64,000 bases of DNA from Thermodesulfobacteriota bacterium (GTDB lineage: Bacteria; Desulfobacterota_D; UBA1144; Nemesobacterales; Nemesobacteraceae), in NCBI GenBank assembly GCA_965200595.1, contig CBDAUE010000004.1, forward strand, positions 20,796 through 84,795, written 5' to 3'. Made by a program: the position numbers and the translations under genes. Below are positions 19,483 to 56,587 of this stretch, in pieces (the first letter of the stretch is position 1; every line of letters begins with the position of its first letter). The notes below the pieces were generated by a model that was not told where the DNA came from, made no database searches, and worked only from the letters and a program-made list of their open reading frames with translations.

Positions 19483-21324
19483 GTGGTTGCATACGGAAGC
19501 TGGCCGTTTTTGATGCAGAATGAAAATACTGATATGAACTGGGACCTGGCTTCTTACTTTCCCGAATTTCAGGGAGTTGAGTATAAAAAATTCAAAGAGA
19601 ATCTTTCAGCAGGGATAAAGAATCTCGATGAGAAGGCATCGGCTTCTGAACCTTTATCCAAGGAAAACTTTGCGTTCTGGAAAGATGTTCTGATTGAAAC
19701 CGAGAGGCTGATAAGCTGGTATTCCCATATTCGTTCTTATGTCGGATGTCTCAGTGCTTCTGATTCCAACAGGGAGGATTATCTGTGCGAGGAAGCGTCG
19801 ATCTCCCTTCTCGGTTCAGATCTTGAAAAGCTTGAGGTTCAGCTGCAGAGAGCGCTTCGGGATGCGGACGAAGATCTGATCTCCGAGTTTGTCTCTTTTC
19901 CGGATATCGCCTCGGCTTCCTATTATGTAAGGCGCGTCTGGAAAAACTCACGGTTCACCATGTCCGCTCCTAAGGAAATTCTGGCCTCGGAACTCGGAGT
20001 CGACGGGATAAGCGCCTGGGGGAGAATCTACGACACCGTATCTTCTAAGATGACGTTTGAGATGGTCTACCCCGACGGGACGAAAAAAAGGCTTCCGATG
20101 TCCCAGAGAAGATCGCTTATGGAAAGTCCGGACAGACAGATAAGAAAAGCCGCTTTTTACGGGGGCAACAAGGCTTGGGAGAATTCTGAAGACGTTGCAG
20201 CGGGTGCCATAAACGCCATATCGGGAACTAGGCACACGCTTTACAGGCACAGGGATATCCCTCATTTTCTCGACGTAGCGCTTTTTGATGCGGCTGTCTC
20301 AAAACAGACTCTGGATTCCATGATGGAGGCAATACGCGAGACGATCGAGCTTCCAAGGAACATCCTCGCTCTCAAGGCCGAGACGCTGGGTCTTGACGGA
20401 ATTTCATGGTACGACCTGGGAGCTCCCATGAATCTTGGCAAAACGGGCGCAGTCGACTGGAGCGGTGCGAAATCCACGGTCTCCGATTCTTTCTCGGCTG
20501 CCTACTCGAGCCTCGGCGGGTTTTTTGATCACATGTGCCGAAGCGAGTGGATAGACTGGGAAGTAAGGGAAGGGAAAAGACCCGGGGGTTTCTGCACGGG
20601 CTCTCTTCTGACCGGAGAGTCAAGGATATTCATGACTTATAACGGCGGGGTAGGAGACATACTTACGCTTGCTCACGAGGCGGGCCATGCCTTTCACTCT
20701 CACGTGATGAGGAAACTTCGTCCCTATGCGCAGTTCTACCCTATGACGCTTGCCGAAACCGCTTCAACTTTCGGGGAAATGCTGCTTGCCGAGGGACTGC
20801 TGCGAGATCCTTCAACGAGCGTTGAGGACAAGGTGATTGTGAGGGATGCGGAAGTAAACCACGGGGCCATATACCTTCTTGACATTCCCGTAAGATACGA
20901 GTTCGAGAGGAAACTCTATGAACGGCGTGCCGAAGGGGAATTGACGGTGAGCGAGCTAAAGGAGCTTATGACCGCGACTCAGAAGGAGATTTTCGGAGAT
21001 GTGCTTTTGGAATGCGACCCGTTTTTCTGGGCTTCAAAGCTTCATTTTTACATAACCGGCGTCAGTTTCTATAATTTCCCCTACACTTTTGGTTACCTGC
21101 TGAGCAGGGCGCTTTTCGAGAAATTCAGGCGGCACGGGGAGGAATTCATTCCGGTTTATGAAGAGTTCCTTTCTCTGACCGGTTCAGATGATGCGGAAGG
21201 GGCGGTGAAAAGATCCGTCGGGGAAGATATAACGAGCAAAGATTTCTGGAAAGAGGCGATTCTTACCCTCTCAAGGCCTCTTGAAGAGCTAAAAGAGCTT
21301 CTGCCCTCGGTTACTGCTACATAA
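19483..21324 (+). CDS. Oligoendopeptidase F, M3 family.
   Basis: HEAGHAFHS zinc-binding HExxH in an M3B-like context. 613 aa. Confidence 0.85.
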   Translation: MVAYGSWPFLMQNENTDMNWDLASYFPEFQGVEYKKFKENLSAGIKNLDEKASASEPLSKENFAFWKDVLIETERLISWYSHIRSYVGCLSASDSNREDYLCEEASISLLGSDLEKLEVQLQRALRDADEDLISEFVSFPDIASASYYVRRVWKNSRFTMSAPKEILASELGVDGISAWGRIYDTVSSKMTFEMVYPDGTKKRLPMSQRRSLMESPDRQIRKAAFYGGNKAWENSEDVAAGAINAISGTRHTLYRHRDIPHFLDVALFDAAVSKQTLDSMMEAIRETIELPRNILALKAETLGLDGISWYDLGAPMNLGKTGAVDWSGAKSTVSDSFSAAYSSLGGFFDHMCRSEWIDWEVREGKRPGGFCTGSLLTGESRIFMTYNGGVGDILTLAHEAGHAFHSHVMRKLRPYAQFYPMTLAETASTFGEMLLAEGLLRDPSTSVEDKVIVRDAEVNHGAIYLLDIPVRYEFERKLYERRAEGELTVSELKELMTATQKEIFGDVLLECDPFFWASKLHFYITGVSFYNFPYTFGYLLSRALFEKFRRHGEEFIPVYEEFLSLTGSDDAEGAVKRSVGEDITSKDFWKEAILTLSRPLEELKELLPSVTAT

Positions 21325-22239: not shown

Positions 22240-23109
22240 CTAAGAAGTTTTTTCGGCGACAGCGTCTTTACTTATATACGTAAACCAAGTGAGGAGGCAG
22301 AGGGAAAGTATAAAAAGACCGATTGCGAGATGGACGGCGGTGACGTAAAAAAGAAGCTTTGAAGTTACCACTAAAAATCCAAGTCCGATCTGAAGCAGGA
22401 GCAGGGCTACCGCCCGAGACATGTTTTTTCGGGCTTGTTTGAGTCTTTCGGATCTTCCGGACAGAATCAGCACGAATATGAATGCTATCGTGAGCAGGTA
22501 GGCGACAGCTCTGTGTGTAAAGTGCGCCAGCACTTTGCCTGACAGCTCAGGGGGAATCCAGTAGCCCAGACACGTCGGAAAATCAGGGCAGGCAAGCCCT
22601 GCTCCCAGGTGTCTTACGTAAGCCCCTAGGGAAGCCTGGATAAATACAAGCAGAAAAAGTGCGAAAAAAAGTCCTGCAGGGCCGGAGAAGCGAAGATCGG
22701 GCTTTCTGGTGATGCCATCGAAGTACACCATGTAAAGGGTAATCGAAAAAATTATTATGGCGTTTGAAAAATGGATTGTAGTCAGGTTTACGGGAAGCTT
22801 GGCAAGAACCACTATTCCTCCAAGCACAATCTGAAACAGAAGAAGCACAACCACGAGCAGGGGAAATATTTTGTAGTTTTTTGCGTAAGTTCGGAATCTT
22901 CTGTAGCAGAGGATGAAAAGTATTATGGACGTTATGCCGCCTATTACTCGATGGGAGAATTCGACGTATATATCCCATCTGAAAGGCGGAATTACCTCCC
23001 CGTGGCAAAGAGGCCAGTCCGGACAGGCGAGTCCAGCCTTAAGTCCCGATACAGCATTTCCCCATATAAGAAGTATGAACAGAAGCCCTAGAGCGGTTTT
23101 TGCAAGCAT
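22240..23109 (-). CDS. ctaA: Heme A synthase (CtaA/COX15).
   Basis: Duplicated half-domains, each with a Cys pair in a periplasmic loop (GLACPDWPLC and GLACPDFPTC) and conserved His. Confidence 0.75.
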   Translation of the reverse strand: MLAKTALGLLFILLIWGNAVSGLKAGLACPDWPLCHGEVIPPFRWDIYVEFSHRVIGGITSIILFILCYRRFRTYAKNYKIFPLLVVVLLLFQIVLGGIVVLAKLPVNLTTIHFSNAIIIFSITLYMVYFDGITRKPDLRFSGPAGLFFALFLLVFIQASLGAYVRHLGAGLACPDFPTCLGYWIPPELSGKVLAHFTHRAVAYLLTIAFIFVLILSGRSERLKQARKNMSRAVALLLLQIGLGFLVVTSKLLFYVTAVHLAIGLFILSLCLLTWFTYISKDAVAEKTS

Positions 23110-37064: not shown

Positions 37065-38417
37065 ATGTCTAAAGAAAATCTTTACTGCCTTACCCTTGCC
37101 GGGGGACGGGGAACCAGACTCTGGCCTCTGTCAACAGAATCTTTGCCCAAGCAGTTTCTCAGCATAAACGGAGACGAGACTCTTTTGCTTGGAACGCTTA
37201 AGCGTGCCGCCCGACTTGTCGCCGAAGAAAACATACTGGTCGTGCTTGAGGAAAAACAGCGCCCGCTTATTGAACAGAACCTTGCCGACACGGATTTTTT
37301 GGGAAAGATAAAAATTGTGACCGAGCCTGTCGGCAGAAATACTGCTCCGGCGATTCTGCTTGGGACACTCGGGATTTCCTCGAAAGACGAAGATGCGGTG
37401 ATAATGGTTTTCCCCTCGGATCATCTCCTTGAAGACGACGATGATTTCTGTGATCACATACGAAGGGCAGTTTTCCTTGCCGAAGACGATTACATCGTGT
37501 GTTTCGGGATAACCCCTTCCGCCCCTGAGACCGGATACGGCTACATTGAGGGAGGAGAACCCCTTCGCGAAGGCGGGCTTAAGATAAAAAGATTCGTCGA
37601 AAAACCCAGCGCCGAAGTTGCAGGACAATACCTGCTTTCGGGGAACTTTTTCTGGAACAGCGGAATGTTCGTTTTCCGGGCCCGTACCATGGTCGAGGAA
37701 TATGCGGCTCTTTGCCCTGATGTGTATCAGCCGATACGCAAAGCTTCCTGCGGTAAAATCGACAGGGACATCTATTCCCGGCTTCCTTCCGTTCCAGTTG
37801 ACCGGGCTGTAATGGAGAGAACCTTGCGAGGAGCCGTGCTGCCGTCTTCTTTTCGCTGGAGCGACATAGGGTCATGGCGGCTTTTCTATGAATTTTTCCC
37901 AAAAGACTCCGAGGGCAATGTGCTTTCGGGAGACGTAATTTTGAAAGACACTGAGACTTCTCTTATAAAAAGTAGTTCGAGACTTGTCTGTGCAGCAGGT
38001 CTGCGCAACATTGCGGTAATAGAAACTCCCGACAGCGTTTTTGTTTCTGGTCTTGAACGCTCAAGCGAGGCGGGCGAATTTGCAAATGAATTAAAGGGAA
38101 AGGGAAGGAGTGAGGCAAGCCATCCGAGTATAGTTCACTATCCTTGGGGCAGCAGGGAAGATGTTGAAAAACGAAAACTATCAAGAGTGATGAAAACAAC
38201 TGTTTTTCCCGGAAAATCAGCGAAAACAGAAAATGCCTCTTCTGAGAACTTGTTATTGGTGGTTTTCGAGGGAGAGGCCCTTATAATCAGCAAGGAGGTC
38301 AGCCATGAACTGGCTTCCGGACAGACCGTTTTTTTTGAAAACGGAGCGAACTGCACTGTCGAAAACAAAACAGATAATATCCTGATCATTCTTGAGATTT
38401 TCTTCGTCAGGAGTTGA
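37065..38417 (+). CDS. manC: Mannose-1-phosphate guanylyltransferase / mannose-6-phosphate isomerase (nucleotidyltransferase plus cupin).
   Basis: LAGGRGTRLWPLS nucleotidyltransferase motif. C-terminal cupin region. Confidence 0.85.
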   Translation: MSKENLYCLTLAGGRGTRLWPLSTESLPKQFLSINGDETLLLGTLKRAARLVAEENILVVLEEKQRPLIEQNLADTDFLGKIKIVTEPVGRNTAPAILLGTLGISSKDEDAVIMVFPSDHLLEDDDDFCDHIRRAVFLAEDDYIVCFGITPSAPETGYGYIEGGEPLREGGLKIKRFVEKPSAEVAGQYLLSGNFFWNSGMFVFRARTMVEEYAALCPDVYQPIRKASCGKIDRDIYSRLPSVPVDRAVMERTLRGAVLPSSFRWSDIGSWRLFYEFFPKDSEGNVLSGDVILKDTETSLIKSSSRLVCAAGLRNIAVIETPDSVFVSGLERSSEAGEFANELKGKGRSEASHPSIVHYPWGSREDVEKRKLSRVMKTTVFPGKSAKTENASSENLLLVVFEGEALIISKEVSHELASGQTVFFENGANCTVENKTDNILIILEIFFVRS

Positions 38418-38482
38418 AAAAAACGGGCAGGACGGAGTTTTGACTATGGTTTCCGTTGAGTTATCATTTCTTCACCGAACGG

Positions 38483-38574
38483 GGAGAGGTGGCCGAGTGG
38501 TCGAAGGCGCTCGATTGCTAATCGAGTAAGGGGTGAAAGCCCCTTCGTGGGTTCGAATCCCACTCTCTCCGCCA
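38483..38574 (+). tRNA. tRNA-Ser (anticodon GCT), long variable arm.
   Basis: GGAGAGGTGGCCGAGTGGTCGAAGGCGCTCGATTGCTAATCGAGTAAGGGGTGAAAGCCCCTTCGTGGGTTCGAATCCCACTCTCTCCGCCA. Confidence 0.9.
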
Positions 38575-38640
38575 CTTCTGCTTTGTATTCCACATTAATG
38601 AGGGCTTTATACCAAGGTAACGTTTGAAGGAATTGTTGCG

Positions 38641-38795
38641 TCCGCACTTGGTCGAAACTGGCAATTCATTTAGGGAGATCGGCGCTGAATCCCGCCTGAA
38701 TCAGACAATTCGGCTTTGAAATTGCCGGAATACCCCCTCCCGCTGTGTGGTTCCAAAAATCTCAACCTCGAAAAACCCCCTACTACGCAAATGCC
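38641..38795 (+). repeat. Copy A of a roughly 160-bp repeated intergenic element (X), just downstream of tRNA-Ser.
   Basis: About 75% identical to the reverse complement of 47322-47486. Conserved blocks: GGCTTTGAAATTGCCGGAATACCCCC and CCAAAAATCTCAA.C..CGAAAAACCC..TACTACGCAAATGC. Confidence 0.6.
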
Positions 38796-38945
38796 TTTCT
38801 TTCTTGCATTTTTGCAGAAATTTTGTTACTCTACATTTGGTAGTTTCAAACCTGAAACGCAACTTTTGGTGTATTGATTTATGTGGGAATTATAGCGATA
38901 ATTAGACAAACTTAGCAGGAGGTCATTTGCTAAGCTAAGGGACTG

Positions 38946-39158
38946 CTATTTCTTCACCTTGATTTTTCTTGAGGCTTGAAGGTCTCTGTCCGCATTGCGG
39001 AAGATTGCCTTTGCCAGTTCCTCCGGCGTTGTGTCTATGCGGGGTATCTTCCGGATCTCGGGTCTGCCTCGGGGATTTTTAATCCGGGATTTGTTCTTTT
39101 TCATGATTCTTACCCAAGGGTGTTTTTCATTCTCAGGGCAATGATAACAGCAATTCAA
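38946..39158 (-). CDS. Small ORF (70 aa) inside the IS1595 3' region. It is translationally coupled (ATGA overlap) to the transposase stop. Possible passenger, or spurious.
   Basis: Basic protein MNCCYHCPENEKHPWVRIMKKNKSRIKNPRGRPEIRKIPRIDTTPEELAKAIF. It lies inside the IS inverted repeats. Confidence 0.25.
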   Translation of the reverse strand: MNCCYHCPENEKHPWVRIMKKNKSRIKNPRGRPEIRKIPRIDTTPEELAKAIFRNADRDLQASRKIKVKK

Positions 39159-39570
39159 GATACAAGCTCTTTATAGGGAAGCTTCTTGCCAACCAACCCC
39201 TTGGCCAACAGCGCCATCTGCTCTATAGTGTCCATCTCTCTTGCATTATGCCTGCCCGCAAACTCCGTAACATAGCGGTCCAGATGTTTCTCGCTCATGT
39301 GATGGTAAGTTCCGTAGTACCCTCTGTTCAAAGCAGCCCAGAAGGATTCCACGCCGTTTACATGGGCTTTTTCTCTTACATACTCTCCCACACTGTGATT
39401 AACCGCTTCATGTCTGTAGTTCTTCTTCCCAAGACCCATATACCCCCTGTTCTGATCGGTGTATACCGTAGAACCTTCTTTCACAGCCTCCTCTACCATG
39501 CGTTGAAGTGTGATGCTCGATACCGGCCTAGTCACTTTTGCCCTGATCTTGCTGCCCCCACGCTCCTTAA
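39155..39570 (-). pseudogene. IS1595-family transposase, C-terminal fragment (DDE_Tnp_IS1595).
   Basis: ...KERGGSKIRAKVTRPVSSITLQRMVEEAVKEGSTVYTDQNRGYMGL...HEAVNHSVGEYVREKAHVNGVESFWAALNRGYYGTYHHMSEKHLDRYVTEFAGRHN is the ISXO2-like conserved core. Confidence 0.8.
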
Positions 39571-40890
39571 AGAAGTGGACCCCAAAAATCAGACAGCACC
39601 TTAAGTGTATTTCCTTGGTATTCTAAAAGAGTATACAGGAGGTACATAATGAAGAGTAAAAGACGTAATCATTCACCGCAGTTCAAGGCAAAGGTAGCGT
39701 TTTTGGCGGTAAAAGGAGACAAGACAGTAGCGGAGCTTGCCCGGCAGTTTGAGGTTCATCCCAATCAGATAAGCATGTGGAAGAAGAAGCAGCTCGGCAA
39801 CGCCGCGGACAAAGTGTTCGGCCAGGGGGCGGGCAGCAAGGCGGCGGGCGAGAGCAAGTACGTAAACCAGCTTGAATCCAAGGTGGGCCAGCTGACGCTG
39901 GAGAACGATTTTTTATCAAAGGCGCTCGGTCGGCAGCGGCGCAAGAAGTTGGTAGTGCGCGGCCGGGCACTTTCTTTGGTAAGGCAGTGCAAACTGCTGG
40001 ATATAAATCGCTCAAATATTTACTACAAACCTGTGGGGGTATCCCCGCAGGACGAAGAGATTGTGAAGAAGATTGACAGGATCTACATTAAGTATCCGTT
40101 TAAGGGTTCAAGAAGGATGGTGTACGCCCTTAAGGCACAGGGCGTACAGGTGGGCAGAAAGCGTGTTATGAGGCTTATGGGGATACGAGGGCTTGCTCCC
40201 GGCCCCCAGACTACAAAGAAAGGGGGAGCAGAGCACAGGATATACCCGTATCTGCTGCGGGGGAAGACTGTAGAGCTTCCCGGGCAGGTATGGGCGGCAG
40301 ACATAACGTATATAGAGATGAGCAGGGGTTTTGTGTATCTGTGTGCGGTAATGGACTGGCACTCGTGCAAGGTTCTTAGCTGGAGAGTGTCTAACACAAT
40401 GGACAGCAGTTTTTGCGTGGAGGCTCTGGAAGAAGCGCTTTACAAGTATGATAAGCCCGAGATATTCAACACCGATCAAGGAAGTCAGTTCACAAGTGAA
40501 GAGTTTACGGGAGTTCTTAAAGACAGAGATATAAAGATAAGCATGGACGGCAAGGGAAGCTGGAGAGACAATGTTTTTGTGGAGAGGCTTTGGAGAAGTG
40601 TTAAGTACGAGGAAGTGTATCTGATGGCATATGAATCCGTTGCCTCGGCAAAGGCAGGTATAGGGAAGTGGATAGATTTTTACAATAAAAAAAGACCACA
40701 TCAGGGGCTTGGAATGAAAACACCGGATGAGGTTTACTATGGTCTTGGGACAGCACAGAAGAATGTGGCTTGAAGCAATGAGACAGACAGAGCAGAGAGT
40801 TTATGGTTTTGGGAGTCTTAAAGATGGTTATGCGTTGGTGGGAATACACTTAAGAAAACAAAAATGCTGTCTAAAAAAGGGGACCACCTC
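39571..40890 (+). mobile_element. IS3-family insertion sequence, copy 3.
   Basis: Same IRs as the other copies. Flanks are TAA and GTC, so there is no target-site duplication. The left flank is the IS1595 fragment and the right flank is the cas9 remnant. Confidence 0.9.
39649..40773 (+). CDS. IS3-family transposase (374 aa, intact).
   Basis: Near-identical to the copy at 9325-10449. Confidence 0.9.
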   Translation: MKSKRRNHSPQFKAKVAFLAVKGDKTVAELARQFEVHPNQISMWKKKQLGNAADKVFGQGAGSKAAGESKYVNQLESKVGQLTLENDFLSKALGRQRRKKLVVRGRALSLVRQCKLLDINRSNIYYKPVGVSPQDEEIVKKIDRIYIKYPFKGSRRMVYALKAQGVQVGRKRVMRLMGIRGLAPGPQTTKKGGAEHRIYPYLLRGKTVELPGQVWAADITYIEMSRGFVYLCAVMDWHSCKVLSWRVSNTMDSSFCVEALEEALYKYDKPEIFNTDQGSQFTSEEFTGVLKDRDIKISMDGKGSWRDNVFVERLWRSVKYEEVYLMAYESVASAKAGIGKWIDFYNKKRPHQGLGMKTPDEVYYGLGTAQKNVA

Positions 40891-41124
40891 TGTCTATGCA
40901 ACCGTCATACAGACGCACTGTTGAATCCTCAAATTCAGCATTGAGTCCGTTAAAAACCACAAATTGTCTACCCGAATAGGTGATCACATAAAAATATATC
41001 TCCCCTGATTTCCAGGGAGCTTTTCTCCAGCAGGGCCTGAATCGAGTCAATGCTCTGGATAGAACCTCTGCTTGCAGCAATTGCGAGAGCCCTAGCGGAG
41101 TAATAGAGTTGACAATCTTCCTAG
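40891..41124 (-). pseudogene. cas9: Degenerate continuation of the cas9 remnant between IS1182 copy A and IS3 copy 3.
   Basis: Minus-strand frames read RAKALGRLSTLLLR(stop) and ...QLYYSARALAIAASRGSIQS. These are co-linear with Cas9 residues about 125-160 (NmeCas9 [27 protein letters not shown]; SpyCas9 LIYLALAHMIKFRG). Low complexity, so this is tentative. Confidence 0.35.
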
Positions 41125-42660
41125 GAGTCTGTCGGGCTTTAGCGGTCATTTAATGTTAAAACAACGGTATCAAGATGTCTGAGAAGGAGAAGACAATGAG
41201 ACGGAGGTTTGTATCAGCAGACCGCAAGACGCCGCAGATGTTTCCGCCTACAATAGAAGAGTATCTGCCCGAAGACCATCTTGCCCGGTTTGTGGTGGAG
41301 ATAGTTGAGCAGCTGGATCTGAGAAGGCTGACGGAAGCGTATTCGGGCAGGGGGTCGGCAGCGTATCATCCGGGAATGAAGGTGGCTCTTCTGTTCTACG
41401 GATACGCGACGGGGACATTCTCTTCCCGGAAGCTTGAGAAGGCAACATATGACAGTGTGGCGTACAGGTATATATGCGCTAACAGCAATCCGGATCATGA
41501 CAGCATAAACAGGTTCCGCAAGAGGTTTGGCAAGGAGCTTGGGGTATTGTTTGTACAGATACTGCAGATAGCGGGACAGATAGGGATGGGCACGGTGAGT
41601 GTGGATGGCACGAAGATAAAGGCTAATGCGAGCAGGCATAAGGCACTGAGCTGGAAGAGGGCAAGGAAGATAGAAAAGCAGCTGAACAAAGAAGTGAAGG
41701 AACTGATGAGACTTGCACGGGAGGCTGACAACTCTAAACTGCCAGAGGATATGAATGTTCCCGAAGAACTTCAGAGACGGGAAGCGAAGCGTGAGATACA
41801 GGAGCGGGCAAAGCACAGGTATGAGCGGGAGTCAGAAGTGTACGGGGAGAAGGTAGAGAAGCGGGAACAGTATGAGAAGCAAAGCGGGAAGAAGGCAGGA
41901 GGGAGCAGACCGAGGGATAAGGATCAGGTGAATCTTGTGGACGGAGATTCGCGGATAATGCCTTCGGGAGGGGGATTTGAGCAGGCATACAACGCTCAGG
42001 GTGCAGTGGATGTGGAGAGCAGACTTATAGTGACCAGGCATGTAACGCAGAACACAAACGACAAGCGTGAGATGGAGCCCGTGCTTGAGCAGTTAAAGGA
42101 GAATGAGCAGAGGCTTGGCAAGGCTGAGAATCTGCTTGCCGACAGCGGATATTACAGTGCAAGCAACGTTAACTTATGTGACAGGGCGGGGATAAAGCCT
42201 TATATATCCAAACGCAGGGAGAAGCACAACAGACCGTTTTGGGAGAGATTCGCACAGTGCAATGAGGAGGAGAAAGAGCCGGCAACACCGGTTGAAGACA
42301 TGCAGAGGAGGCTTGGAACATCCGCAGGCAAAAAGATGTACTCAAAACGCAAGTCAACGATAGAGCCTGTGTTCGGAATAATGAAGCAGGTGATGGGATT
42401 CCGGCAGTTTATGGTGCGGGGGCTTGAAGCTGTGCGCGGAGAGTGGAATCTTGTGTGCATAGGGTACAACCTGAAGAGAATGTATGCGTTGAAGGGCTGA
42501 CAAAGAGGTGAGAGAGCAGAGAATATTGGGGATTTGAGGTAAAAACAGCTCCCCGAAGCTTAGCTGAACCCCCAAAATCAAGGATTTTTGCCGATATGAC
42601 TTTCACCAGCTCTGAATCAGTTGGATTTCCCCTCAATTGTTCGCTAAGAGCGACAGACTC
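41125..42660 (+). mobile_element. IS1182/IS5-like insertion sequence, copy A (about 1.54 kb). It is inserted into cas9.
   Basis: Terminal IRs GAGTCTGTCGGGCTTTAGCG on the left, with GAGTCTGTCGCTCTTAGCG as the reverse complement of the right end. Flanking CTAG at 41121-41124 and CTTG at 42661-42664 form a probable 4-bp target duplication with one mismatch. A second, inverted copy is at 54730-56265. Confidence 0.85.
41175..42500 (+). CDS. IS1182-family (IS5-like) transposase with a DUF772/InsH N-terminal domain.
   Basis: EDHLARFVVEIVEQLDL...AYSGRGSAAYHPGMKVALLFYGYATGTFSSRKLEKATYDSVAYRYICANSNPDHDSINRFRKRF. 441 aa. Confidence 0.85.
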   Translation: MSEKEKTMRRRFVSADRKTPQMFPPTIEEYLPEDHLARFVVEIVEQLDLRRLTEAYSGRGSAAYHPGMKVALLFYGYATGTFSSRKLEKATYDSVAYRYICANSNPDHDSINRFRKRFGKELGVLFVQILQIAGQIGMGTVSVDGTKIKANASRHKALSWKRARKIEKQLNKEVKELMRLAREADNSKLPEDMNVPEELQRREAKREIQERAKHRYERESEVYGEKVEKREQYEKQSGKKAGGSRPRDKDQVNLVDGDSRIMPSGGGFEQAYNAQGAVDVESRLIVTRHVTQNTNDKREMEPVLEQLKENEQRLGKAENLLADSGYYSASNVNLCDRAGIKPYISKRREKHNRPFWERFAQCNEEEKEPATPVEDMQRRLGTSAGKKMYSKRKSTIEPVFGIMKQVMGFRQFMVRGLEAVRGEWNLVCIGYNLKRMYALKG

Positions 42661-43036
42661 CTTGGGCTTTTGCTCTTGCTTTTGCTTTTGCTCTTATAGT
42701 GTAGGGGTCTCCAAGTCTGTTGAGTTCTTTTTCTGGAGAGAGATTGTTTTTAAGTTCTTCAGGAAGAAAACCTTTTAGAATCAGATAATTTCTGATGCGG
42801 CCTTTACGTCTGTTGCGGCGCTGTATCTGCCTCCTCTGAAGTCGCGATTCTCTTCGTTTCCTGTTCTTTGGGGTAGAAGATTTGTCTTCAATGGACCTGA
42901 TAAATATACGGCTTCCGCAGTCAATAAATTTCACGGGTTCTTTATTCTTTTCTTCTATAACGCTCCAGCCAATCGAATTTGTTCCTACGTCAAGTCCTAT
43001 AACATATTCTGGCAATTTACATCCTTTAGTACTCAT
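42661..43036 (-). pseudogene. cas9: Cas9 N-terminal fragment (about 125 codons: RuvC-I motif plus arginine-rich bridge helix), truncated by IS1182 copy A.
   Basis: MSTKGCKLPEYVIGLDVGTNSIGWSVIEEKNKEPVKFIDCGSRIFIRSIEDKSSTPKNRKRRESRLQRRQIQRRNRRKGRIRNYLILKGFL...LGDPYTIRAKA. Compare NmeCas9 [39 protein letters not shown]...ARRLARSVRRLTRRRAHRLLRARRLLKREGVL...NTPWQLRAAAL. RBS GAGGT precedes the ATG at 43034-43036. The last 7 residues of the track ORF are IS sequence. Confidence 0.75.
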
Positions 43037-43039
43037 TTT

Positions 43040-43216
43040 CTGACCTCAGACTCTGAATTCTGGTTGCTTTTTCAGCTATGCTCTTATAGCATAACACAAG
43101 GGGTTTATAAAACTGGCTGAATGTGCCACGAATTTGCTATTCATAACAAGAAGCAAATGCTTCGTAGGCAATCTCTAAGGAGAACCAAAGGCCTCGCATC
43201 GGGGCCTTTTTTTTAG
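43040..43216 (+). ncRNA. Candidate orphan tracrRNA-like small RNA, transcribed divergently from the cas9 start and ending in an intrinsic terminator.
   Basis: A non-coding 335-nt gap lies between the cas9 start and era. Stable hairpins: CAGCTATGCT-CTTAT-AGCATA at 43073-43097, and ATTTGCT...AGCAAAT. The terminator AAAGGCCTCGCATCGGGGCCTTTTTTTT lies at about 43187-43216. The location (upstream of and antisense to cas9) matches the type II-A/II-C tracrRNA position. It is unverified without a repeat array. Confidence 0.35.
43187..43216 (+). terminator. Rho-independent terminator (GC stem, 9-nt loop, T8).
   Basis: AAAGGCC TCGCATCGG GGCCTTT followed by TTTTTTTT. An A-tract upstream makes it potentially bidirectional. 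Confidence 0.6.
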
Positions 43217-43372
43217 TTTTCCTCAGTTCCGGCAAGGTTAGCGTTTTGAGAATCAAGCTTTTATTCGGATAATGAAGATAAAGCTGTTTCGCTCTTCGGT
43301 AGTTTCAAATTTGAAAGCAGGACTTATAAAGAGCAGAATTGTCTGCAAAAAAAAGGGGAGGAGTAGTTTTTC

Positions 43373-46008: not shown

Positions 46009-47232
46009 TTATTGCTCCTTATTACTTCGCATCTTCCACCAAATTACCCCTAATATGAAAAGTAAAACAATACATACGGTAATGACTCCACGTATAATTC
46101 TGCTTTTCGGTTCCGTTAGGTACGCCTCTCCTTCCTCTGGGTAAAAACCCGAGCCAAGAACATACATATCATCACCGAGTGTTACCTTCTTAACATAGCC
46201 TACCTTGAATGAAGTTCCCTTTGCCTTGCCGACTTCATCAATTTCATCTCCCTCAATCGCCGGATTGTCCCACAGATAATAAACAAAACCTCCCCCCTGC
46301 TCTGCTACTCTGAGCATTTCCTTGCCAACCTCAACGCCGTTTTCGTCTACTAAATTATAAGTGGGTGTTCTGAGGAGGCTCGGATCGTTACCATTAAACA
46401 CTACTAGACCCTGCCTTGTGAAGGCGAAGAGATAAATTTCATTGTATTTCCAAGTTTTGTTTTTGTTGCTTGCCGTCAGCAGGTTTGTGATGTCCATTTT
46501 GCCCTGAGAGATTTCATAAACGTGACTTAAGAATTCGGCAGCTTTCTCCACAAAATTCTTCAGAGTGTCGGGATCTTTTACCGAATCTGCTCTCACTTCG
46601 GGCGCGTATCTTTTCACGATTTCAGGCACGGTCGGTACCACTTCATCGTGATGAAGACCCCCGATCAGGACAAGTTCAATTCCAAGCGCAGAGACTGAAC
46701 AGTTGATTGCGTAAGCCCACCTGCGCAAGGTGTTGCTGTCTGATGGATCATTTGGGTCATCCCAGTAATAATCAACAAATCCTCCCCGTTTATTTGCTTG
46801 AGCGGCGTTGATAAGTTTCTGCACTACGTCGGTTCCTTTTGCGTCCCGCCAAGTGCTTATGTCGGTGCCGGTTGCCGATTCATAATATCCGTGAGCTACG
46901 GATCTGCCTTGTTTGTCAACTAAAATCAGGTAGTTGGAACCGGACTTCCAGTCCTCATGAAAATATATTTCTCCCAGTATCTTCTGCCATAGATCAAGGC
47001 TCTGTTCGTGCGGATCCTGAAGCTCCCAGTGCGCTTTTGCGTGCAGTACAAATTCCCTTATGGCACTTCGGCTGTTTCTTGCTTTGTCGGCCGTTACAGT
47101 TTCTTTACTGGCATTTGCATGCTTGCCGTGGGCCGAGGCCGAATGCATGTGAAAAAAAACGCATATGAATACCAGTACGCAAACAAAGACTCCCTTTAAT
47201 ACCGAGATTTTAAAATTATGACTTTTCAGCAT
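46009..47232 (-). CDS. Membrane-anchored periplasmic double Cache-like ligand-binding protein with no output domain. Start set at MLKSHNF; the track ORF extends to 47307.
   Basis: Two Cache-like modules each carrying GGFVDYYWDDPNDP / GGGFVYYLWDNPAI. N-terminal signal/TM, C-terminal TM helix ITVCIVLLFILGVIWW, then stop. Confidence 0.55.
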   Translation of the reverse strand: MLKSHNFKISVLKGVFVCVLVFICVFFHMHSASAHGKHANASKETVTADKARNSRSAIREFVLHAKAHWELQDPHEQSLDLWQKILGEIYFHEDWKSGSNYLILVDKQGRSVAHGYYESATGTDISTWRDAKGTDVVQKLINAAQANKRGGFVDYYWDDPNDPSDSNTLRRWAYAINCSVSALGIELVLIGGLHHDEVVPTVPEIVKRYAPEVRADSVKDPDTLKNFVEKAAEFLSHVYEISQGKMDITNLLTASNKNKTWKYNEIYLFAFTRQGLVVFNGNDPSLLRTPTYNLVDENGVEVGKEMLRVAEQGGGFVYYLWDNPAIEGDEIDEVGKAKGTSFKVGYVKKVTLGDDMYVLGSGFYPEEGEAYLTEPKSRIIRGVITVCIVLLFILGVIWWKMRSNKEQ

Positions 47233-47321: not shown

Positions 47322-47486
47322 AGCATTTGCGTAGTAAAGGGTTTTTCGGGGTTTGAGATTTTTGGAATAACGTAGCGGGGGGGGGTATTCCGGCAATTTC
47401 AAAGCCGGATAGCCTGATCCAGGCCGATTCAGACACAACTCAGCGTCGATTCACCTGAGAATCGCCATTTCCGACCAAGCGCGGAT
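47322..47486 (-). repeat. Copy B of the roughly 160-bp X element, in the 5' region of the double-Cache gene.
   Basis: The reverse complement aligns with 38641-38795, including the GGCTTTGAAATTGCCGGAATACCCCC hairpin block and the ...TACTACGCAAATGC end. Confidence 0.6.
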
Positions 47487-47661
47487 ACAGCAGTCCCTTC
47501 AAGGTTAATTTCTCTTTAATTTTTCTGTGAACAATTAAGAGACGCTAACTAGTATCGGCGTAAAGGTATCTCATAAAAAGTTGCGTTTCGAACTTGAAAC
47601 CACGGATAAATTCACCGCAATCAGCGGGTTCTGGCGAGTCCGATCTCTGCTATCGCTTCTT

Positions 47662-48273
47662 TTACTCTTGACCGACCCCCAGGTTCAGTAGCCCGTTTAT
47701 TCCGAGTTTAGTATCCGCATGTGCCCTCAAAACAATTTCCGCTGCGGCTCTTGCATCTTCTCCGGCATCGTGGTGGCGGAAGTTAATACCGAGATCGCAG
47801 GCAATATTCCCGAGATTGTAACCCCTAAGAGCGTATTTGTCCGGCCAAGCGCGTCGCGCTACCTGCGCACTGTCAATCCAGATTTCATAACGAAGAGATT
47901 TTCCGCATTCTTCAAATGCTTTTGAGACTGCCCTGCGGTCAAAAAATGTATGGCTTATGACGATTCCTTCCAGATATAGTGCGATTCTGTCGCATATATC
48001 TTCAAACCGGGGGCAGCCTTTTACCATGTTATGGTCTATGCCGTGTATGGCGACATTGTGAGGATCAAAAAAATCATGCGGATCAATAAATTGAACCCAG
48101 ACCTGTTTTATTTCCGCCTCTCTGACCACGGCGATTCCCACCTGACAGATACTTGAAACGTTTGAATTGGCGGTCTCGACGTCAACGGCGACAAAATCCA
48201 GATTTTTAATCGTAGGGAGATCGATTTTTCCGTTTTGTCCGCCTAGTGTTTCCGTCTTTCTGCCCTTTTTCAT
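47662..48273 (-). CDS. DEDDh 3'-5' exonuclease (DnaQ / Pol III epsilon-like), stand-alone.
   Basis: Exo I FVAVDVETAN, Exo II HNVAIHGIDH region, Exo III HHDAGEDARAAAEI. Confidence 0.75.
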   Translation of the reverse strand: MKKGRKTETLGGQNGKIDLPTIKNLDFVAVDVETANSNVSSICQVGIAVVREAEIKQVWVQFIDPHDFFDPHNVAIHGIDHNMVKGCPRFEDICDRIALYLEGIVISHTFFDRRAVSKAFEECGKSLRYEIWIDSAQVARRAWPDKYALRGYNLGNIACDLGINFRHHDAGEDARAAAEIVLRAHADTKLGINGLLNLGVGQE

Positions 48274-48403: not shown

Positions 48404-48907
48404 GTGCCGTTATACGAATATGAATGCGACAGTTGCATGGAGAGTTACAATGCGGATATAGACAATTTGGTTGCCAAGCTTACGAAGACAAACGCAAAGA
48501 AGGTTTTCAAGCAGAACCCTAATTTCTGTTACGCTGAAGTAACAAGTGACAAAAACGGAAAACTGTTTTTTGAACTGGGAGAGAAAGGGGTAGGCGGTGC
48601 GAGGAGGTTTCGTTACAAGCTTGACAACGGGAAGGTTCTTTACCTTGAGCTTAAGGATTTTCGTTTCAACCACCTTGTGTATGGGGATGACGACCAGGAT
48701 GAAGTCAGATGCCCTCTCTGCGACGGTTCGGATACTGTGAGAAGGGTTTTTTCCACCTTCAAGGCCATATTTGACGACAAGAGCAAAAGAGCTCCGGGTC
48801 CGGGGGATGAACTTAGATGGCATCTTGAATACAAGCAGCAAAAGGACGAAGAAATAGCGAGCGACTGGGTCGGGCAGGATCACCTGAACCAGTATTTCAA
48901 TAGATAG
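48404..48907 (+). CDS. FmdB-like split zinc-ribbon protein with an internal insertion of about 85 aa (167 aa). GTG start.
   Basis: MPLYEYECDSC ... RCPLCDGSDTVRRVFS. This is the FmdB-family zinc-ribbon pattern interrupted by an extra domain. Confidence 0.5.
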   Translation: MPLYEYECDSCMESYNADIDNLVAKLTKTNAKKVFKQNPNFCYAEVTSDKNGKLFFELGEKGVGGARRFRYKLDNGKVLYLELKDFRFNHLVYGDDDQDEVRCPLCDGSDTVRRVFSTFKAIFDDKSKRAPGPGDELRWHLEYKQQKDEEIASDWVGQDHLNQYFNR

Positions 48908-48916
48908 GAGACGCAA

Positions 48917-49420
48917 ATGCCCCTCTATGAATTTGAATGTGCCAAATGCAGAGATAATGTTGAGAGATCACTCAAGGCTCTTGAGAAAAAGCGGGACAAG
49001 AAAACCGTAAAAAACCTTGTGGAGAAATATGAAAATATTTACGCAATAGAAATTATTGACCTTGAGTCCGAAAAGATAGTTGCAAGGCACGGAAGGAAGG
49101 GGAAAGACTCCGTGTTTAACGATTTCTATCTTAATGACGGAACTCTTCTTGCGCTTTTCAATATGCGGAACTACAGGTTCTCCGAGCTTATATACGAAGA
49201 GGGAGACGAGAAAAACGTAAAGTGTTACTGCGGGGAGAAAAAGAAAGTGGAGAAAGTTATATCGACTTTTGCTTTTACCAGGGACCTTTCAACCGATATG
49301 CCGAAGCCCGATCTTTCGAACCTGCCGCCTTCGGTAAGAAACAGAACTTTCGTAGGAGACTATATAGAGGAAAAGGACAGGCCTAAGAAGCACAGGCCCA
49401 CCATGGGTAGAAAAGAGTAA
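48917..49420 (+). CDS. Paralogue of the preceding zinc-ribbon protein (167 aa).
   Basis: MPLYEFECAKC ... KCYCGEKKKVEKVISTF. Same length and architecture as its neighbour, but low identity. Confidence 0.5.
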   Translation: MPLYEFECAKCRDNVERSLKALEKKRDKKTVKNLVEKYENIYAIEIIDLESEKIVARHGRKGKDSVFNDFYLNDGTLLALFNMRNYRFSELIYEEGDEKNVKCYCGEKKKVEKVISTFAFTRDLSTDMPKPDLSNLPPSVRNRTFVGDYIEEKDRPKKHRPTMGRKE

Positions 49421-52487: not shown

Positions 52488-53808
52488 AGAAGTGGACCCC
52501 AAAAATCAGACAGCATCTTAAGTGTATTTCCTTGGTATTCTAAAAGAGTATACAGGAGGTACATAATGAAGAGTAAAAGACGTAATCATTCACCGCAGTT
52601 CAAGGCAAAGGTAGCGTTTTTGGCGGTAAAAGGAGACAAGACAGTAGCGGAGCTTGCCCGGCAGTTTGAGGTTCATCCCAATCAGATAAGCATGTGGAAG
52701 AAGAAGCAGCTCGGCAACGCCGCGGACAAAGTGTTCGGCCAGGGGGCGGGCAGCAAGGCGGCGGGCGAGAGCAAGTACGTAAACCAGCTTGAATCCAAGG
52801 TGGGCCAGCTGACGCTGGAGAACGATTTTTTATCAAAGGCGCTCGGTCGGCAGCGGCGCAAGAAGTTGGTAGTGCGCGGCCGGGCACTTTCTTTGGTAAG
52901 GCAGTGCAAACTGCTGGATATAAATCGCTCAAATATTTACTACAAACCTGTGGGGGTATCCCCGCAGGACGAAGAGATTATGAAGAAGATTGACAGGATC
53001 TACATTAAGTATCCGTTTAAGGGTTCAAGAAGGATGGTGTACGCCCTTAAGGCACAGGGCGTACAGGTGGGCAGAAAGCGTGTTATGAGGCTTATGGGGA
53101 TACGAGGGCTTGCTCCCGGCCCCCAGACTACAAAGAAAGGGGGAGCAGAGCACAGGATATACCCGTATCTGCTGCGGGGGAAGACTGTAGAGCTTCCCGG
53201 GCAGGTATGGGCGGCAGACATAACGTATATAGAGATGAGCAGGGGTTTTGTGTATCTGTGTGCGGTAATGGACTGGCACTCGTGCAAGGTTCTTAGCTGG
53301 AGAGTGTCTAACACAATGGACAGCAGTTTTTGCGTGGAGGCTCTGGAAGAAGCGCTTTACAAGTATGATAAGCCCGAGATATTCAACACCGATCAAGGAA
53401 GCCAGTTCACAAGTGAAGAGTTTACGGGAGTTCTTAAAGACAGAGATATAAAGATAAGCATGGACGGCAAGGGAAGCTGGAGAGACAATGTTTTTGTGGA
53501 GAGGCTTTGGAGAAGTGTTAAGTACGAGGAAGTGTATCTGATGGCATATGAATCCGTTGCCTCGGCAAAGGCAGGTATAGGGAAGTGGATAGATTTTTAC
53601 AATGAAAAAAGACCACATCAGGGGCTTGGAATGAAAACACCGGATGAGGTTTACTATGGTCTTGGGACAGCACAGAAGAATGTGGCTTGAAGCAATGAGA
53701 CAAACAGAGCAGAGAGTTTATGGTTTTGGGAGTCTTAAAGATGGTTATGCGTTGGTGGGAATACACTTAAGAAAACAAAAATGCTGTCTAAAAAAGGGGA
53801 CCACCTCT
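52488..53808 (+). mobile_element. IS3-family insertion sequence, copy 4.
   Basis: Same IRs as the other copies. Flanks are TTT and ATC, so there is no target duplication. The right flank is the N-terminal half of the IS1595 element. Confidence 0.9.
52566..53690 (+). CDS. IS3-family transposase (374 aa, intact). The track ORF is extended upstream to 52179 through the non-IS flank.
   Basis: Identical N-terminus MKSKRRNHSPQF, with ATG at 52566 after GGAGG. Confidence 0.9.
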   Translation: MKSKRRNHSPQFKAKVAFLAVKGDKTVAELARQFEVHPNQISMWKKKQLGNAADKVFGQGAGSKAAGESKYVNQLESKVGQLTLENDFLSKALGRQRRKKLVVRGRALSLVRQCKLLDINRSNIYYKPVGVSPQDEEIMKKIDRIYIKYPFKGSRRMVYALKAQGVQVGRKRVMRLMGIRGLAPGPQTTKKGGAEHRIYPYLLRGKTVELPGQVWAADITYIEMSRGFVYLCAVMDWHSCKVLSWRVSNTMDSSFCVEALEEALYKYDKPEIFNTDQGSQFTSEEFTGVLKDRDIKISMDGKGSWRDNVFVERLWRSVKYEEVYLMAYESVASAKAGIGKWIDFYNEKRPHQGLGMKTPDEVYYGLGTAQKNVA

Positions 53809-54354
53809 ATCTTGTCTTGAGTCCCCGCCCCCATCATCCTGGGTTTTTTCGACCTGTGCATATTGCCATACTTCCCGCCCATATAGGTTTCGTCCACCTC
53901 CACCGCTCCGCCCAGCTTCTCATCCCTTATCCATCCCTGCCTTATCTTCTCCCTGCCTTATCTTCTGAGCTAAAGTCCATGCCGTTGACCGAGCTATCCC
54001 CAAATCCCTGTGAAGCTTCATGCTGGACACGCCTTTAAGATTTGTTGTCATCAAGTACAAAGCCACCACCCACTTGCGCAATGGCGTCTTGCTGCTTCTC
54101 ATTACAGTTCCAGTCCTCACACTGAAATACTTTCGGCAATCCTTGCAGTGATAAGGCATTTTATGCTTCGCCCCGGCAGTACGAGTCCCTGCGCAGTGCG
54201 GACAATGCCTCTGCCCGTTCGGCCAGCGCTGATCCTCAAACCACTTTGTCGCAGATCCCTCATCGGGAAACATCTCAAGCAGTTCCATAACCCCTATTCC
54301 TTTTCTGTGAAACCTTCCAGGGGCCTTGTACTTCCTCTCAGACATTCCTAACAC
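53809..54354 (-). pseudogene. IS1595-family transposase, N-terminal fragment (Zn-ribbon, HTH, start of the DDE domain).
   Basis: GQRHCPHCAGTRTAGAKHKMPYHCKDCRKYFSVRTGTVM...KWVVALYLMTTNLKGVSSMKLHRDLGIARSTAWTL. Downstream, in a second frame, ...VEVDETYMGGKYGNMHRSKKPRMMGAGTQDK runs up to the IS3 junction. Confidence 0.75.
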
Positions 54355-54466
54355 TCCTTAATTACTCTATTTACCTGTCTAATATATTAACTAAAATAGA
54401 GAAAATACCAAGGTTCTAGAAAAAGCTTTTAGGGCTTTGTCTAATTATCGCTATAATTCCCTACAT
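53809..54466 (-). mobile_element. IS1595-family element, left (N-terminal) half.
   Basis: IR TTTGTCTAATTATCGCTATAATTCCCTACAT at 54436-54466. It abuts the right end of IS3 copy 4. Confidence 0.8.
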
Positions 54467-54472: not shown

Positions 54473-54502
54473 TTGACAAGGGTTAGACAATTGACTTATA
54501 AT
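54473..54502 (+). promoter_or_regulatory. Sigma-70-like promoter (TTGACA, 18-nt spacer, TATAAT) for the downstream small secreted-protein gene.
   Basis: TTGACAagggttagacaattgactTATAAT lies immediately outside the IS1595 end. Start codon plus RBS at 54535-54547. Confidence 0.5.
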
Positions 54503-54544: not shown

Positions 54545-54725
54545 GAAATGAAAACCACCGTTTGCGCTGTTTCGACATTGATCTTGCTCTTCACTAGCGT
54601 GTTGGCCCACGGTCAGCTACGGCCGGACAATCCTGTTTCGACCTTGAACTTGACTGTGGGGAAGAGTTTCAGCACTACGCTCCCTGAAGTTTTGGGGGCC
54701 AACGGGGCGGTGCGTTATTTCTTCC
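54545..54725 (+). pseudogene. Small secreted protein gene (originally about 76 codons), interrupted by IS1182 copy B.
   Basis: MKTTVCAVSTLILLFTSVLAHG signal peptide. The reading frame resumes after the IS at 56266 (…FFPRECKSAQKTNRNSTA) when the 4-bp CTAG duplication is removed. Confidence 0.4.
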
Positions 54726-54729
54726 CTAG

Positions 54730-56265
54730 GAGTCTGTCGCTCTTAGCGAACAATTGAGGGGAAATCCAACTGATTCAGAGCTGGTGAAAGTCATATCGGC
54801 AAAAATCCTTGATTTTGGAGGTTCAGCTAAGCTTCGGGGAGCTGTTTTTACCTCAAATCCCCAATATTCTCTGCTCTCTCACCTCTTTGTCAGCCCTTCA
54901 ACGCATACATTCTCTTCAGGTTGTACCCTATGCACACAAGATTCCACTCTCCGCGCACAGCTTCAAGCCCCCGCACCATAAACTGCCGGAATCCCATCAC
55001 CTGCTTTATTATTCCGAACACAGGCTCTATCGTTGACTTGCGTTTTGAGTACATCTTTTTGCCTGCGGATGTTCCAAGCCTCCTCTGCATGTCTTCAACC
55101 GGTGTTGCCGGCTCTTTCTCCTCCTCATTGCACTGTGCGAATCTCTCCCAAAACGGTCTGTTGTGCTTCTCCCTGCGTTTGGATATATAAGGCTTTATCC
55201 CCGCCCTGTCACATAAGTTAACGTTGCTTGCACTGTAATATCCGCTGTCGGCAAGCAGATTCTCAGCCTTGCCAAGCCTCTGCTCATTCTCCTTTAACTG
55301 CTCAAGCACGGGCTCCATCTCACGCTTGTCGTTTGTGTTCTGCGTTACATGCCTGGTCACTATAAGTCTGCTCTCCACATCCACTGCACCCTGAGCGTTG
55401 TATGCCTGCTCAAATCCCCCTCCCGAAGGCATTATCCGCGAATCTCCGTCCACAAGATTCACCTGATCCTTATCCCTCGGTCTGCTCCCTCCTGCCTTCT
55501 TCCCGCTTTGCTTCTCATACTGTTCCCGCTTCTCTACCTTCTCCCCGTACACTTCTGACTCCCGCTCATACCTGTGCTTTGCCCGCTCCTGTATCTCACG
55601 CTTCGCTTCCCGTCTCTGAAGTTCTTCGGGAACATTCATATCCTCTGGCAGTTTAGAGTTGTCAGCCTCCCGTGCAAGTCTCATCAGTTCCTTCACTTCT
55701 TTGTTCAGCTGCTTTTCTATCTTCCTTGCCCTCTTCCAGCTCAGTGCCTTGTGCCTGCTCGCATTAGCCTTTATCTTCGTGCCATCCACACTCACCGTGC
55801 CCATCCCTATCTGTCCCGCTATCTGCAGTATCTGTACAAACAATACCCCAAGCTCCTTGCCAAACCTCTTGCGGAACCTGTTTATGCTGTCATGATCCGG
55901 ATTGCTGTTAGCGCATATATACCTGTACGCCACACTGTCATATGTTGCCTTCTCAAGCTTCCGGGAAGAGAATGTCCCCGTCGCGTATCCGTAGAACAGA
56001 AGAGCCACCTTCATTCCCGGATGATACGCTGCCGACCCCCTGCCCGAATACGCTTCCGTCAGCCTTCTCAGATCCAGCTGCTCAACTATCTCCACCACAA
56101 ACCGGGCAAGATGGTCTTCGGGCAGATACTCTTCTATTGTAGGCGGAAACATCTGCGGCGTCTTGCGGTCTGCTGATACAAACCTCCGTCTCATTGTCTT
56201 CTCCTTCTCAGACATCTTGATACCGTTGTTTTAACATTAAATGACCGCTAAAGTCCAACAGACTC
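54730..56265 (-). mobile_element. IS1182/IS5-like insertion sequence, copy B. It is inverted relative to copy A.
   Basis: Same IRs as copy A. Perfect CTAG direct repeats at 54726-54729 and 56266-56269. Confidence 0.85.
54890..56215 (-). CDS. IS1182-family transposase (441 aa).
   Basis: Identical to the copy at 41175-42500, except for one substitution near the C-terminus (GIIKQ vs GIMKQ). Confidence 0.85.
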   Translation of the reverse strand: MSEKEKTMRRRFVSADRKTPQMFPPTIEEYLPEDHLARFVVEIVEQLDLRRLTEAYSGRGSAAYHPGMKVALLFYGYATGTFSSRKLEKATYDSVAYRYICANSNPDHDSINRFRKRFGKELGVLFVQILQIAGQIGMGTVSVDGTKIKANASRHKALSWKRARKIEKQLNKEVKELMRLAREADNSKLPEDMNVPEELQRREAKREIQERAKHRYERESEVYGEKVEKREQYEKQSGKKAGGSRPRDKDQVNLVDGDSRIMPSGGGFEQAYNAQGAVDVESRLIVTRHVTQNTNDKREMEPVLEQLKENEQRLGKAENLLADSGYYSASNVNLCDRAGIKPYISKRREKHNRPFWERFAQCNEEEKEPATPVEDMQRRLGTSAGKKMYSKRKSTIEPVFGIIKQVMGFRQFMVRGLEAVRGEWNLVCIGYNLKRMYALKG

Positions 56266-56587
56266 CTAGAGAGTGTAAAAGTGCACAAAAAACCAACAGA
56301 AATAGTACGGCATGAACAAGCTGATCAAGACCCGTCTCCCATCCAAGTCACCGTTGAAGAAGGCAACCACTGGTGGCCGGATTTATGTTGCCGACCCCGA
56401 CTGGCCACAGTTCATCGCATCGGCACTCGCATCCGCTGGGTGGAGACCGGCCGTGCGGGATGACGGCGACGCATGGCCGTGTGGCTCACCCCCACTGATT
56501 GGATCACTATCCTCAAAAACAATAAAGGAAAAGGGTAAAACATGAAAAATTCATGATACACACGAATTAAGCTGATTAAGGAGAAAA

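Follow-up and report, generated by a model that had tools for sequence, protein, structure and literature searches.

A short non-coding repeat in two intergenic spacers of a Candidatus Dadabacteria genome

Introduction

Why should two unrelated intergenic spacers of one bacterial genome carry the same short segment of non-coding DNA? The segment considered here lies behind a tRNA-Ser gene and again ahead of a gene for a double-Cache protein, within a contig of the uncultured phylum Candidatus Dadabacteria. The organism, known from a metagenome assembly, is assigned to this phylum by the names that members of the Cache and Era protein clusters bear. The whole stretch of DNA that was analysed, 64 kb in length, is called the window below. 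The first-pass annotation of this DNA recognized the pair and proposed to explain it in one of three ways: as a gene for a small RNA, as a mobile leader or regulatory cassette, or as an element of the MITE type.

Extent and divergence of the two copies

Comparison of the window with itself by blastn yields one such pair, at 38624-38794 (+) and 47502-47323 (-). It aligns at 76.9% identity over 182 columns (E ~4e-35) and is the sole sizeable dispersed repeat in the window besides insertion sequences. An nhmmer profile constructed from both copies matches two places in the 64-kb window, both of which are the known copies. The initial description of an element that occurs twice, with about 75% identity over about 160 nt, is borne out, with the adjustment that homology begins 17 nt further 5' (at 38624 rather than 38641, and at 47502 rather than 47486). 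The parts of the element are as follows.

38624-38794, + strand: copy A, 171 nt, as defined by blastn, nhmmer and alignment
47323-47502, - strand: copy B, 180 nt, as defined by blastn, nhmmer and alignment
38711-38737, + strand (in copy B, 47381-47407, - strand): 27-nt block CGGCTTTGAAATTGCCGGAATACCCCC, identical in both copies, which includes a 5-bp hairpin
38751-38794, + strand (in copy B, 47323-47367, - strand): better conserved 3' block, TTCCAAAAATCTCAA..CGAAAAACCC..TACTACGCAAATGC

When gaps are counted as single events, the alignment has 172 columns with 29 substitutions and three indels (2, 10 and 1 nt), which corresponds to 81% identity. The substitutions are distributed along the element and consist of 24 transitions and 5 transversions. 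There are 22 differences in the 5' half and 10 in the 3' half (Fisher p=0.03), such that the 3' half is mildly better conserved, and the 3' block that had been described as common to the two copies is indeed found in both. The 27-nt block is the longest identical run and is mildly unusual in length (p=0.07).

Both copies are non-coding, as had been proposed. No reading frame is open across both of them, no indel has a length divisible by three, every frame is broken by the indels, and six-frame translations of the element find no match in predicted-protein sets, even at E<=10. The indel lengths and the frames rule out a protein-coding relic. Homology between the copies ends at approximately 38617/47509 and 38801/47316, and the flanks beyond these points are unrelated, with one 25-nt motif, separate from the element, as the sole similarity between the two loci. 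Because the flanks are otherwise unrelated and homology stops short of the flanking genes, a segmental duplication that includes genes, which the first-pass annotation had likewise not seen, is ruled out.

Genomic settings

The two copies reside beside different kinds of genes. Copy A begins 50 nt past the end of tRNA-Ser(GCT), at 38574, and ends 86 nt ahead of the terminal inverted repeat of an IS1595/ISXO2-like element. Copy B is located between the genes for an RNase T-like exonuclease and a double-Cache protein, in the sense orientation of both. Public assemblies place the start of the Cache gene at 47232, on the same strand and 90 nt after copy B; the product of this gene is a signal-peptide protein. 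With the revised boundaries, these distances of 50 and 90 nt agree with the placement given originally, beside tRNA-Ser and upstream of the Cache start codon in the sense orientation. The neighbours of the element are listed here.

38483-38574, + strand: tRNA-Ser(GCT), upstream neighbour of copy A
38881-38911, + strand: terminal inverted repeat of a truncated IS1595/ISXO2-like element, right bound of the copy A locus
46009-47232, - strand: gene for a double-Cache periplasmic protein, downstream of copy B
47662-48273, - strand: gene for an RNase T-like (DEDDh) exonuclease, upstream of copy B

The interval between the copies contains an IS3-family copy, an IS4/IS1182-like (DDE_Tnp_1) copy, the 5' part of cas9 (~130 codons), era, and genes for an enoyl-CoA hydratase and a nucleoside deoxyribosyltransferase. 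The cas9 remnant (42644-43036, - strand) is an N-terminal fragment, spanning RuvC-I and an arginine-rich helix, with matches to type II-C Cas9 structures (E ~2e-9). The IS4/IS1182-like copy at 41109-42666 has cut it short, and the window contains neither a CRISPR array nor cas1 or cas2. The spacer upstream of the remnant (43080-43215, + strand) ends in a strong intrinsic terminator, AAAGGCCTCGCATCGGGGCCTTTTTTTT. This spacer could be a leftover tracrRNA gene, a candidate that reaches only 15.7 bits (E 4.8) with the Rfam tracrRNA model.

A second, shorter repeat accompanies the element at both loci. It is 25 nt long with a palindromic core, and its three copies in the window are always intergenic.

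38843-38867, + strand: companion repeat GTTTCA-N4-TGAAAC-GCAACTTTT, 48 nt downstream of copy A
47576-47600, - strand: companion repeat, 73 nt upstream of copy B
43302-43317: third, partial copy of the companion repeat, upstream of era

The order of the companion repeat and the element is opposite at the two sites, and no copy occurs in 105 kb of related Dadabacteria loci. This sequence could be an operator for a regulator or a second tiny dispersed repeat. A different arrangement is seen in the cytochrome oxidase cluster, where a 32-nt inverted repeat with 88% complementarity (21032-21063 and 22333-22364) flanks a UbiA-family (haem O synthase-like) gene.

Comparison with related genomes

The closest relatives compared have proteins that are 70-79% identical to those of the window. 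Three of these loci (L023, L024 and L025) retain the gene order PhoD, HisIE, two zinc-ribbon genes, RNase T-like gene and Cache gene. The spacer between the last two genes measures 241-344 nt in these relatives versus 429 nt here, making it 85-188 nt longer in the window, and the relatives' spacers have no similarity to the element. Two further loci (L034 and L035) retain the order DUF4301, ManC and tRNA-Ser. In L034, the tRNA gene is followed at a distance of 162 nt by the start of a gene for an outer-membrane efflux protein, and the spacer does not contain the element. The corresponding spacer of the window would be ~385 nt long if the IS1595-like element is removed and the sequence from 54467 onward is its continuation. 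This reconstruction rests on the two halves of the IS1595-like element (39155-39535 and 53920-54354) and on their matching terminal repeats; if it is accepted, the tRNA-Ser site exceeds that of the relative by ~220 nt.

None of the five related loci, three of which represent the Cache site and two the tRNA-Ser site, has the element in its orthologous spacer. A profile of the relatives' spacers matches neither copy A nor copy B, and copy B is therefore not merely a diverged form of the ancestral spacer. To judge from these comparisons, the element is, at both sites, extra DNA that was acquired in this lineage. The idea of an inserted or dispersed element thus survives in its general form, supported by absence from five orthologous spacers, whereas each of the specific options that had been attached to it is without support, as described below.

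Two features near these sites are of separate interest. The zinc-ribbon genes of the window (48404-48907 and 48917-49420, + strand) are tandem paralogues that encode 167-aa proteins with N-terminal CxxC zinc-ribbon motifs and faint Zn_ribbon_8 matches, and the pair is kept in all relatives examined. On the far side of the split IS1595-like element, the segment 54467-54723 (+ strand) carries a near-consensus promoter (TTGACA-N18-TATAAT) and a ribosome-binding site ahead of an open reading frame (ORF) at 54548. This ORF begins with a signal peptide and is cut after 59 codons by an IS1182-like copy. Its location suggests that it may be the beginning of the outer-membrane efflux gene found behind tRNA-Ser in L034; the protein match is weak (E 0.37).

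Search for further copies

The two-copy nhmmer profile has no match in 135 kb of related Dadabacteria loci. Exact-word scans also identify no true copy among GTDB species-representative genomes (with a 20-mer from the element) or JGI metagenomes (with a 22-mer). The GTDB scan returns 20 single matches in unrelated phyla, each only 20-23 nt long and attributable to chance, and the one JGI match, inside a long ORF, is also a chance match. Exact-word scans of this type would miss diverged copies. Three scans of viral contigs and distant-mode searches of plasmid and phage collections likewise yield no copy. A chimeric six-frame protein query, designed to reveal additional copies through spurious ORF calls on them, has no match either, even at E<=10. 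The copy number of two applies to the 64-kb window, the remainder of the source genome being outside the search.

Short-read assemblies provide one hint of additional copies. Logan contigs from the same strain stop at 47511 (the end of L022) and restart at 47449 (the start of L030), with breaks at the 5' edge of copy B and within its 5' half in five to six samples each. A break at this position is as expected for a segment that is repeated or variable in length. The pattern suggests either that another near-identical copy exists elsewhere or that an array of 11-nt repeats within the element varies in length (see below).

RNA structure and transcription signals

An element that encodes a small RNA might be expected to match a known family, to fold stably or to carry signals of its own. 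When the window is searched with Rfam 15, only tRNAs reach the gathering score and nothing relevant appears in either locus at E<=10; no covariance-model match places the element in a described RNA family. No sigma-70-like promoter or terminator-like site is present inside or at the edges of either copy. tRNA-Ser(GCT) has a promoter-like site at 38440-38467, and no terminator-like site is found near this gene or copy A in the scanned region 38400-39000, nor between the RNase T-like gene and copy B. Clear intrinsic terminators exist elsewhere in the genome, for example, at 43188-43215.

Predicted structure likewise gives no signal. Folding z-scores relative to shuffled sequences are -0.28 and -0.82 for the sense strands and +1.40 and +0.17 for the antisense strands, such that neither strand outperforms its shuffled versions. 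Taken over its full length, the element is not an imperfect palindrome or a stable hairpin. The only hairpin common to both copies is the 5-bp CCGGC-N9-GCCGG, in which four pairs are invariant and one changes on one side only, from C-G to U-G. A hairpin with compensatory context had been reported for the pair. Although the hairpin itself is preserved in both copies, it contains no compensatory change, and it gives no compensatory evidence because it lies within a near-identical block that has no double change.

RNAalifold, supplied with the two sequences, predicts 36 pairs with two double changes for the sense strand and 35 pairs with none for the antisense strand. One of the double changes falls in an alternative hairpin, GCCTGRATCAGRCWATYCGGC. 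By our own estimate, 19% divergence would produce approximately one double change by chance, such that the two observed in 36 pairs are near chance level. The first-pass annotation had staked its proposal on the existence of further copies and of covariation, and neither was found in anything that was searched.

TGAATC units

The largest indel between the copies, that of 10 nt, corresponds to one TGAATC-like unit. These units are arranged as follows.

38686-38702, + strand: in copy A, a pair of perfect TGAATC direct repeats at a distance of 11 nt; the sole perfect match in the window
47415-47464, - strand: three to five degenerate TGAATC-like units in copy B, spaced by 10-11 nt

Autocorrelation at a lag of 11 reaches 0.36 in copy B and is at background in copy A. 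When two mismatches are allowed, the window contains the TGAATC pair no more often than shuffled sequences do. The units, a weak signal, resemble arrays of sites for winged-helix response regulators and also resemble a small degenerate tandem repeat.

A riboswitch or 5' leader of the downstream gene would have the promoter on one side and the start codon on the other. For the reconstructed ORF next to site A, the best promoter (TTGACA-N18-TATAAT, 54473-54502) is downstream of the element. At site B, no sigma-70-like promoter is recognizable downstream of copy B.

Insertion sequences and rearrangement of the region

The region that surrounds the element has been extensively rearranged. An IS3-family element of 1.33 kb is present in four copies (9244-10567, 16625-17956, 39571-40898 and 52488-53811), and an IS4/IS1182-like element (DDE_Tnp_1) of 1.55 kb is present in two (41109-42666 and 54724-56279). 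Copies are >=99% identical within families (99-100% for both the IS3-like and the IS1182-like elements), which implies recent activity. A single IS1595/ISXO2-like element is split into a C-terminal half at 38881-39535 and an N-terminal half at 53920-54466, with a 97% match between their terminal repeats over 31 nt. An IS3-family copy adjoins each half, and these two copies (39571-40898 and 52488-53811) are in direct orientation. As a consequence of this arrangement, 11.6 kb of syntenic core genes, from PhoD to Era, lie inside the split IS1595-like element and between two IS3 copies.

Elsewhere in the window, two overlapping long ORFs at 2793-7470 (- strand) carry DUF4011 and AAA_11 in one, and AAA_12, an MTES_1575 endonuclease domain and DUF3320 in the other. 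They may represent one large helicase-nuclease gene that has been split by a frameshift.

Origin of the repeat

The element is short (171-180 nt), non-coding, and present or absent between relatives, as is typical of MITE-type elements. The more specific marks of a MITE, which the first-pass annotation had listed among its options, are not found. On inspection, no terminal inverted repeats are kept in both copies at the ends of the homology, and the predicted folds contain no long terminal stem. No matching short direct repeats are seen to flank either copy, with boundaries that derive from comparison of the two copies only. Alignments of the element to both ends of the IS3-, IS1182- and IS1595-like elements score no better than shuffles (Smith-Waterman p = 0.09-0.78), and derivation from the ends of resident insertion sequences is rejected. 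A 40-nt similarity inside the IS1182-like gene is marginal (E 0.02).

Two other known systems were also considered. A template and variable repeat (TR/VR) pair of a DGR is rejected, as mismatches are symmetric over all four bases and no RT domain is present among the window ORFs scanned, which were part of the total. A CRISPR leader or tracrRNA, which came into question on account of the Cas9 remnant between the copies, is rejected as well. The window has no array, and the element has no BLAST similarity to the spacer upstream of cas9, where a 12-nt chance match is the only resemblance.

We tentatively prefer to explain the element as a non-coding dispersed repeat that is specific to this lineage and most probably represents what is left of a small non-autonomous mobile element. 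A DNA segment of ~175 bp would have entered two unrelated intergenic spacers after this lineage split from its sequenced relatives, either by transposition or by illegitimate recombination associated with insertion sequences. The ends of the element would by now no longer be recognizable, and the copies would be drifting almost neutrally. Because promoter-like and terminator-like signals are absent from both copies, transcription would be passive only, with read-through from tRNA-Ser into copy A and from the exonuclease gene into copy B.

Several observations are consistent with such a relic. Small non-autonomous elements are typically of this size and located between genes, and the 24:5 ratio of transitions to transversions, spread along the element, fits drift. 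The companion repeat, with three copies in the window, indicates that this genome has other small dispersed repeats. The orthologous spacers of relatives are without the element, and active insertion sequences and rearrangements abound in the genome. The breaks of the Logan contigs at copy B also fit a repeated or variable segment. On the other side are the missing terminal inverted repeats and target duplications, the lack of similarity to the ends of insertion sequences, and the failure to find a third copy in the collections searched. In addition, the relatives are distant (70-79% protein identity) and their spacers too diverged to align, such that exact empty sites are not definable from them. 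The better-conserved 3' half (10 versus 22 differences, p=0.03) could mean constraint, and both copies share the orientation of the downstream gene, an agreement with a chance probability of 0.5.

Alternative explanations

The repeat might never have been mobile as a unit. In a one-off ectopic duplication, illegitimate recombination or repair would have placed a duplicate of ~175 bp of one spacer in the other amid the IS-driven rearrangements of this region. Such an event would account for the presence of two copies only among all sequences searched and for the absence of terminal repeats and target duplications. Copy A is situated 86 nt from an IS1595 end in a heavily rearranged block, and the second short block common to both loci, in differing order, suggests a messy recombination history. 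However, the two copies are ~19-23% different, whereas copies of the insertion sequences are 99-100% identical, and the duplication must therefore long predate current IS activity. Neither copy is like the ancestral spacer of the relatives, which means that no donor site is evident, and inverted copying of a short patch between spacers is uncommon in bacteria. On balance an ectopic duplication seems unlikely. The chances are slightly poorer for a cis-regulatory DNA cassette that acts upstream of envelope genes. Here the TGAATC repeats, phased at 10-11 bp, would be putative sites for a winged-helix response regulator of the OmpR/PhoB type, and the A-tract-rich 3' block would bend or position DNA by the promoter of the downstream gene. 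Both copies are upstream of, and co-oriented with, genes for signal-peptide proteins (the Cache gene, and the ORF at 54548 if the IS1595-like element is removed). The perfect TGAATC pair in copy A, the three to five degenerate units in copy B, the indel of exactly one unit and the better-conserved 3' half all accord with this function. Against it, the periodicity is weak by both measures given above, and the spacing is not maintained, with ~90 nt to the -35 element at site A versus 90 nt to the ATG at site B. Orthologous genes are expressed in relatives that do not have the element, copy B is not followed by a recognizable sigma-70-like promoter, and no regulator is assignable. The proposal of a mobile leader or regulatory cassette receives no specific support.

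A function at the RNA level is improbable. The two sibling copies would be small RNAs, or RNAs processed from read-through transcripts, with copy A forming the 3' trailer of tRNA-Ser and copy B an intergenic RNA between the exonuclease and Cache genes. Because the flanking genes are co-directional and no terminator precedes the element, both copies are probably transcribed. The sole change in the common hairpin makes a G-U pair on the sense strand only, and both double changes predicted by RNAalifold, including that in the alternative hairpin, are on this strand. Yet the element has neither a promoter of its own nor an intrinsic terminator in a genome that uses clear ones, its folding z-scores are unremarkable on either strand, it has no Rfam match even at E<=10, its double changes are as frequent as chance predicts, and it is missing from relatives. 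With two sequences only, the RNA reading is unsupported, and the small RNA gene suggested at the outset remains without backing. Equally hard to credit is a combination of these ideas, in which a mobile cis-acting cassette specific to this lineage, bearing either phased sites for a response regulator or a regulatory RNA that is processed, would have been co-opted ahead of genes for envelope or sensor proteins and would rewire their expression in this IS-rich genome. The genes in question are those for the Cache protein and for the signal-peptide protein next to tRNA-Ser.

By itself the element amounts to little: one more small dispersed repeat for an uncultured phylum, and another sign of the extent to which mobile DNA has remodelled this lineage. 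If many genomic copies exist, they would define a new small mobile-element family and make a proper covariation test possible. The element would also gain weight if it were found to affect expression of the Cache sensor-like protein.

Comparison with known systems

Sibling small RNAs such as Qrr1-5, OmrA/OmrB and PrrF1/2 have their own promoters and Rho-independent terminators and are kept across related species. The element resembles these RNAs in that it exists as two paralogous non-coding copies with ~80% identity, parts of which are unevenly conserved, and in that the copies are intergenic, one of them beside a tRNA gene. It differs from them in having no promoter, no terminator and no conservation across species.

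Arrays of sites for OmpR/PhoB-family regulators offer a different parallel. The Pho box consists of 7-bp repeats every 11 bp. A similar arrangement is seen in copy A, where a pair of perfect 6-7-bp direct repeats is spaced by exactly 11 bp, and in copy B, where several degenerate repeats with 10-11 bp spacing lie upstream of a gene. Unlike the Pho box, the sequence of these repeats is unrelated, their signal is statistically weak, their spacing from the promoter is not conserved and no cognate regulator is identified.

A third comparison is with MITEs and other small dispersed repeats, such as Correia/NEMIS in Neisseria, RUP and BOX in Streptococcus pneumoniae, and ERIC/IRU in enterobacteria, each of which occurs in tens to hundreds of copies. 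Only two copies of the element are seen here, and it differs from these families in having no terminal inverted repeats, target duplication or long imperfect palindrome and no related autonomous insertion sequence in the window. What it shares with them is a size within the 100-200 bp range, a non-coding sequence, an intergenic location that often entails co-transcription with neighbouring genes, presence in one lineage but not at the orthologous sites of relatives, and a host genome that is rich in insertion sequences.
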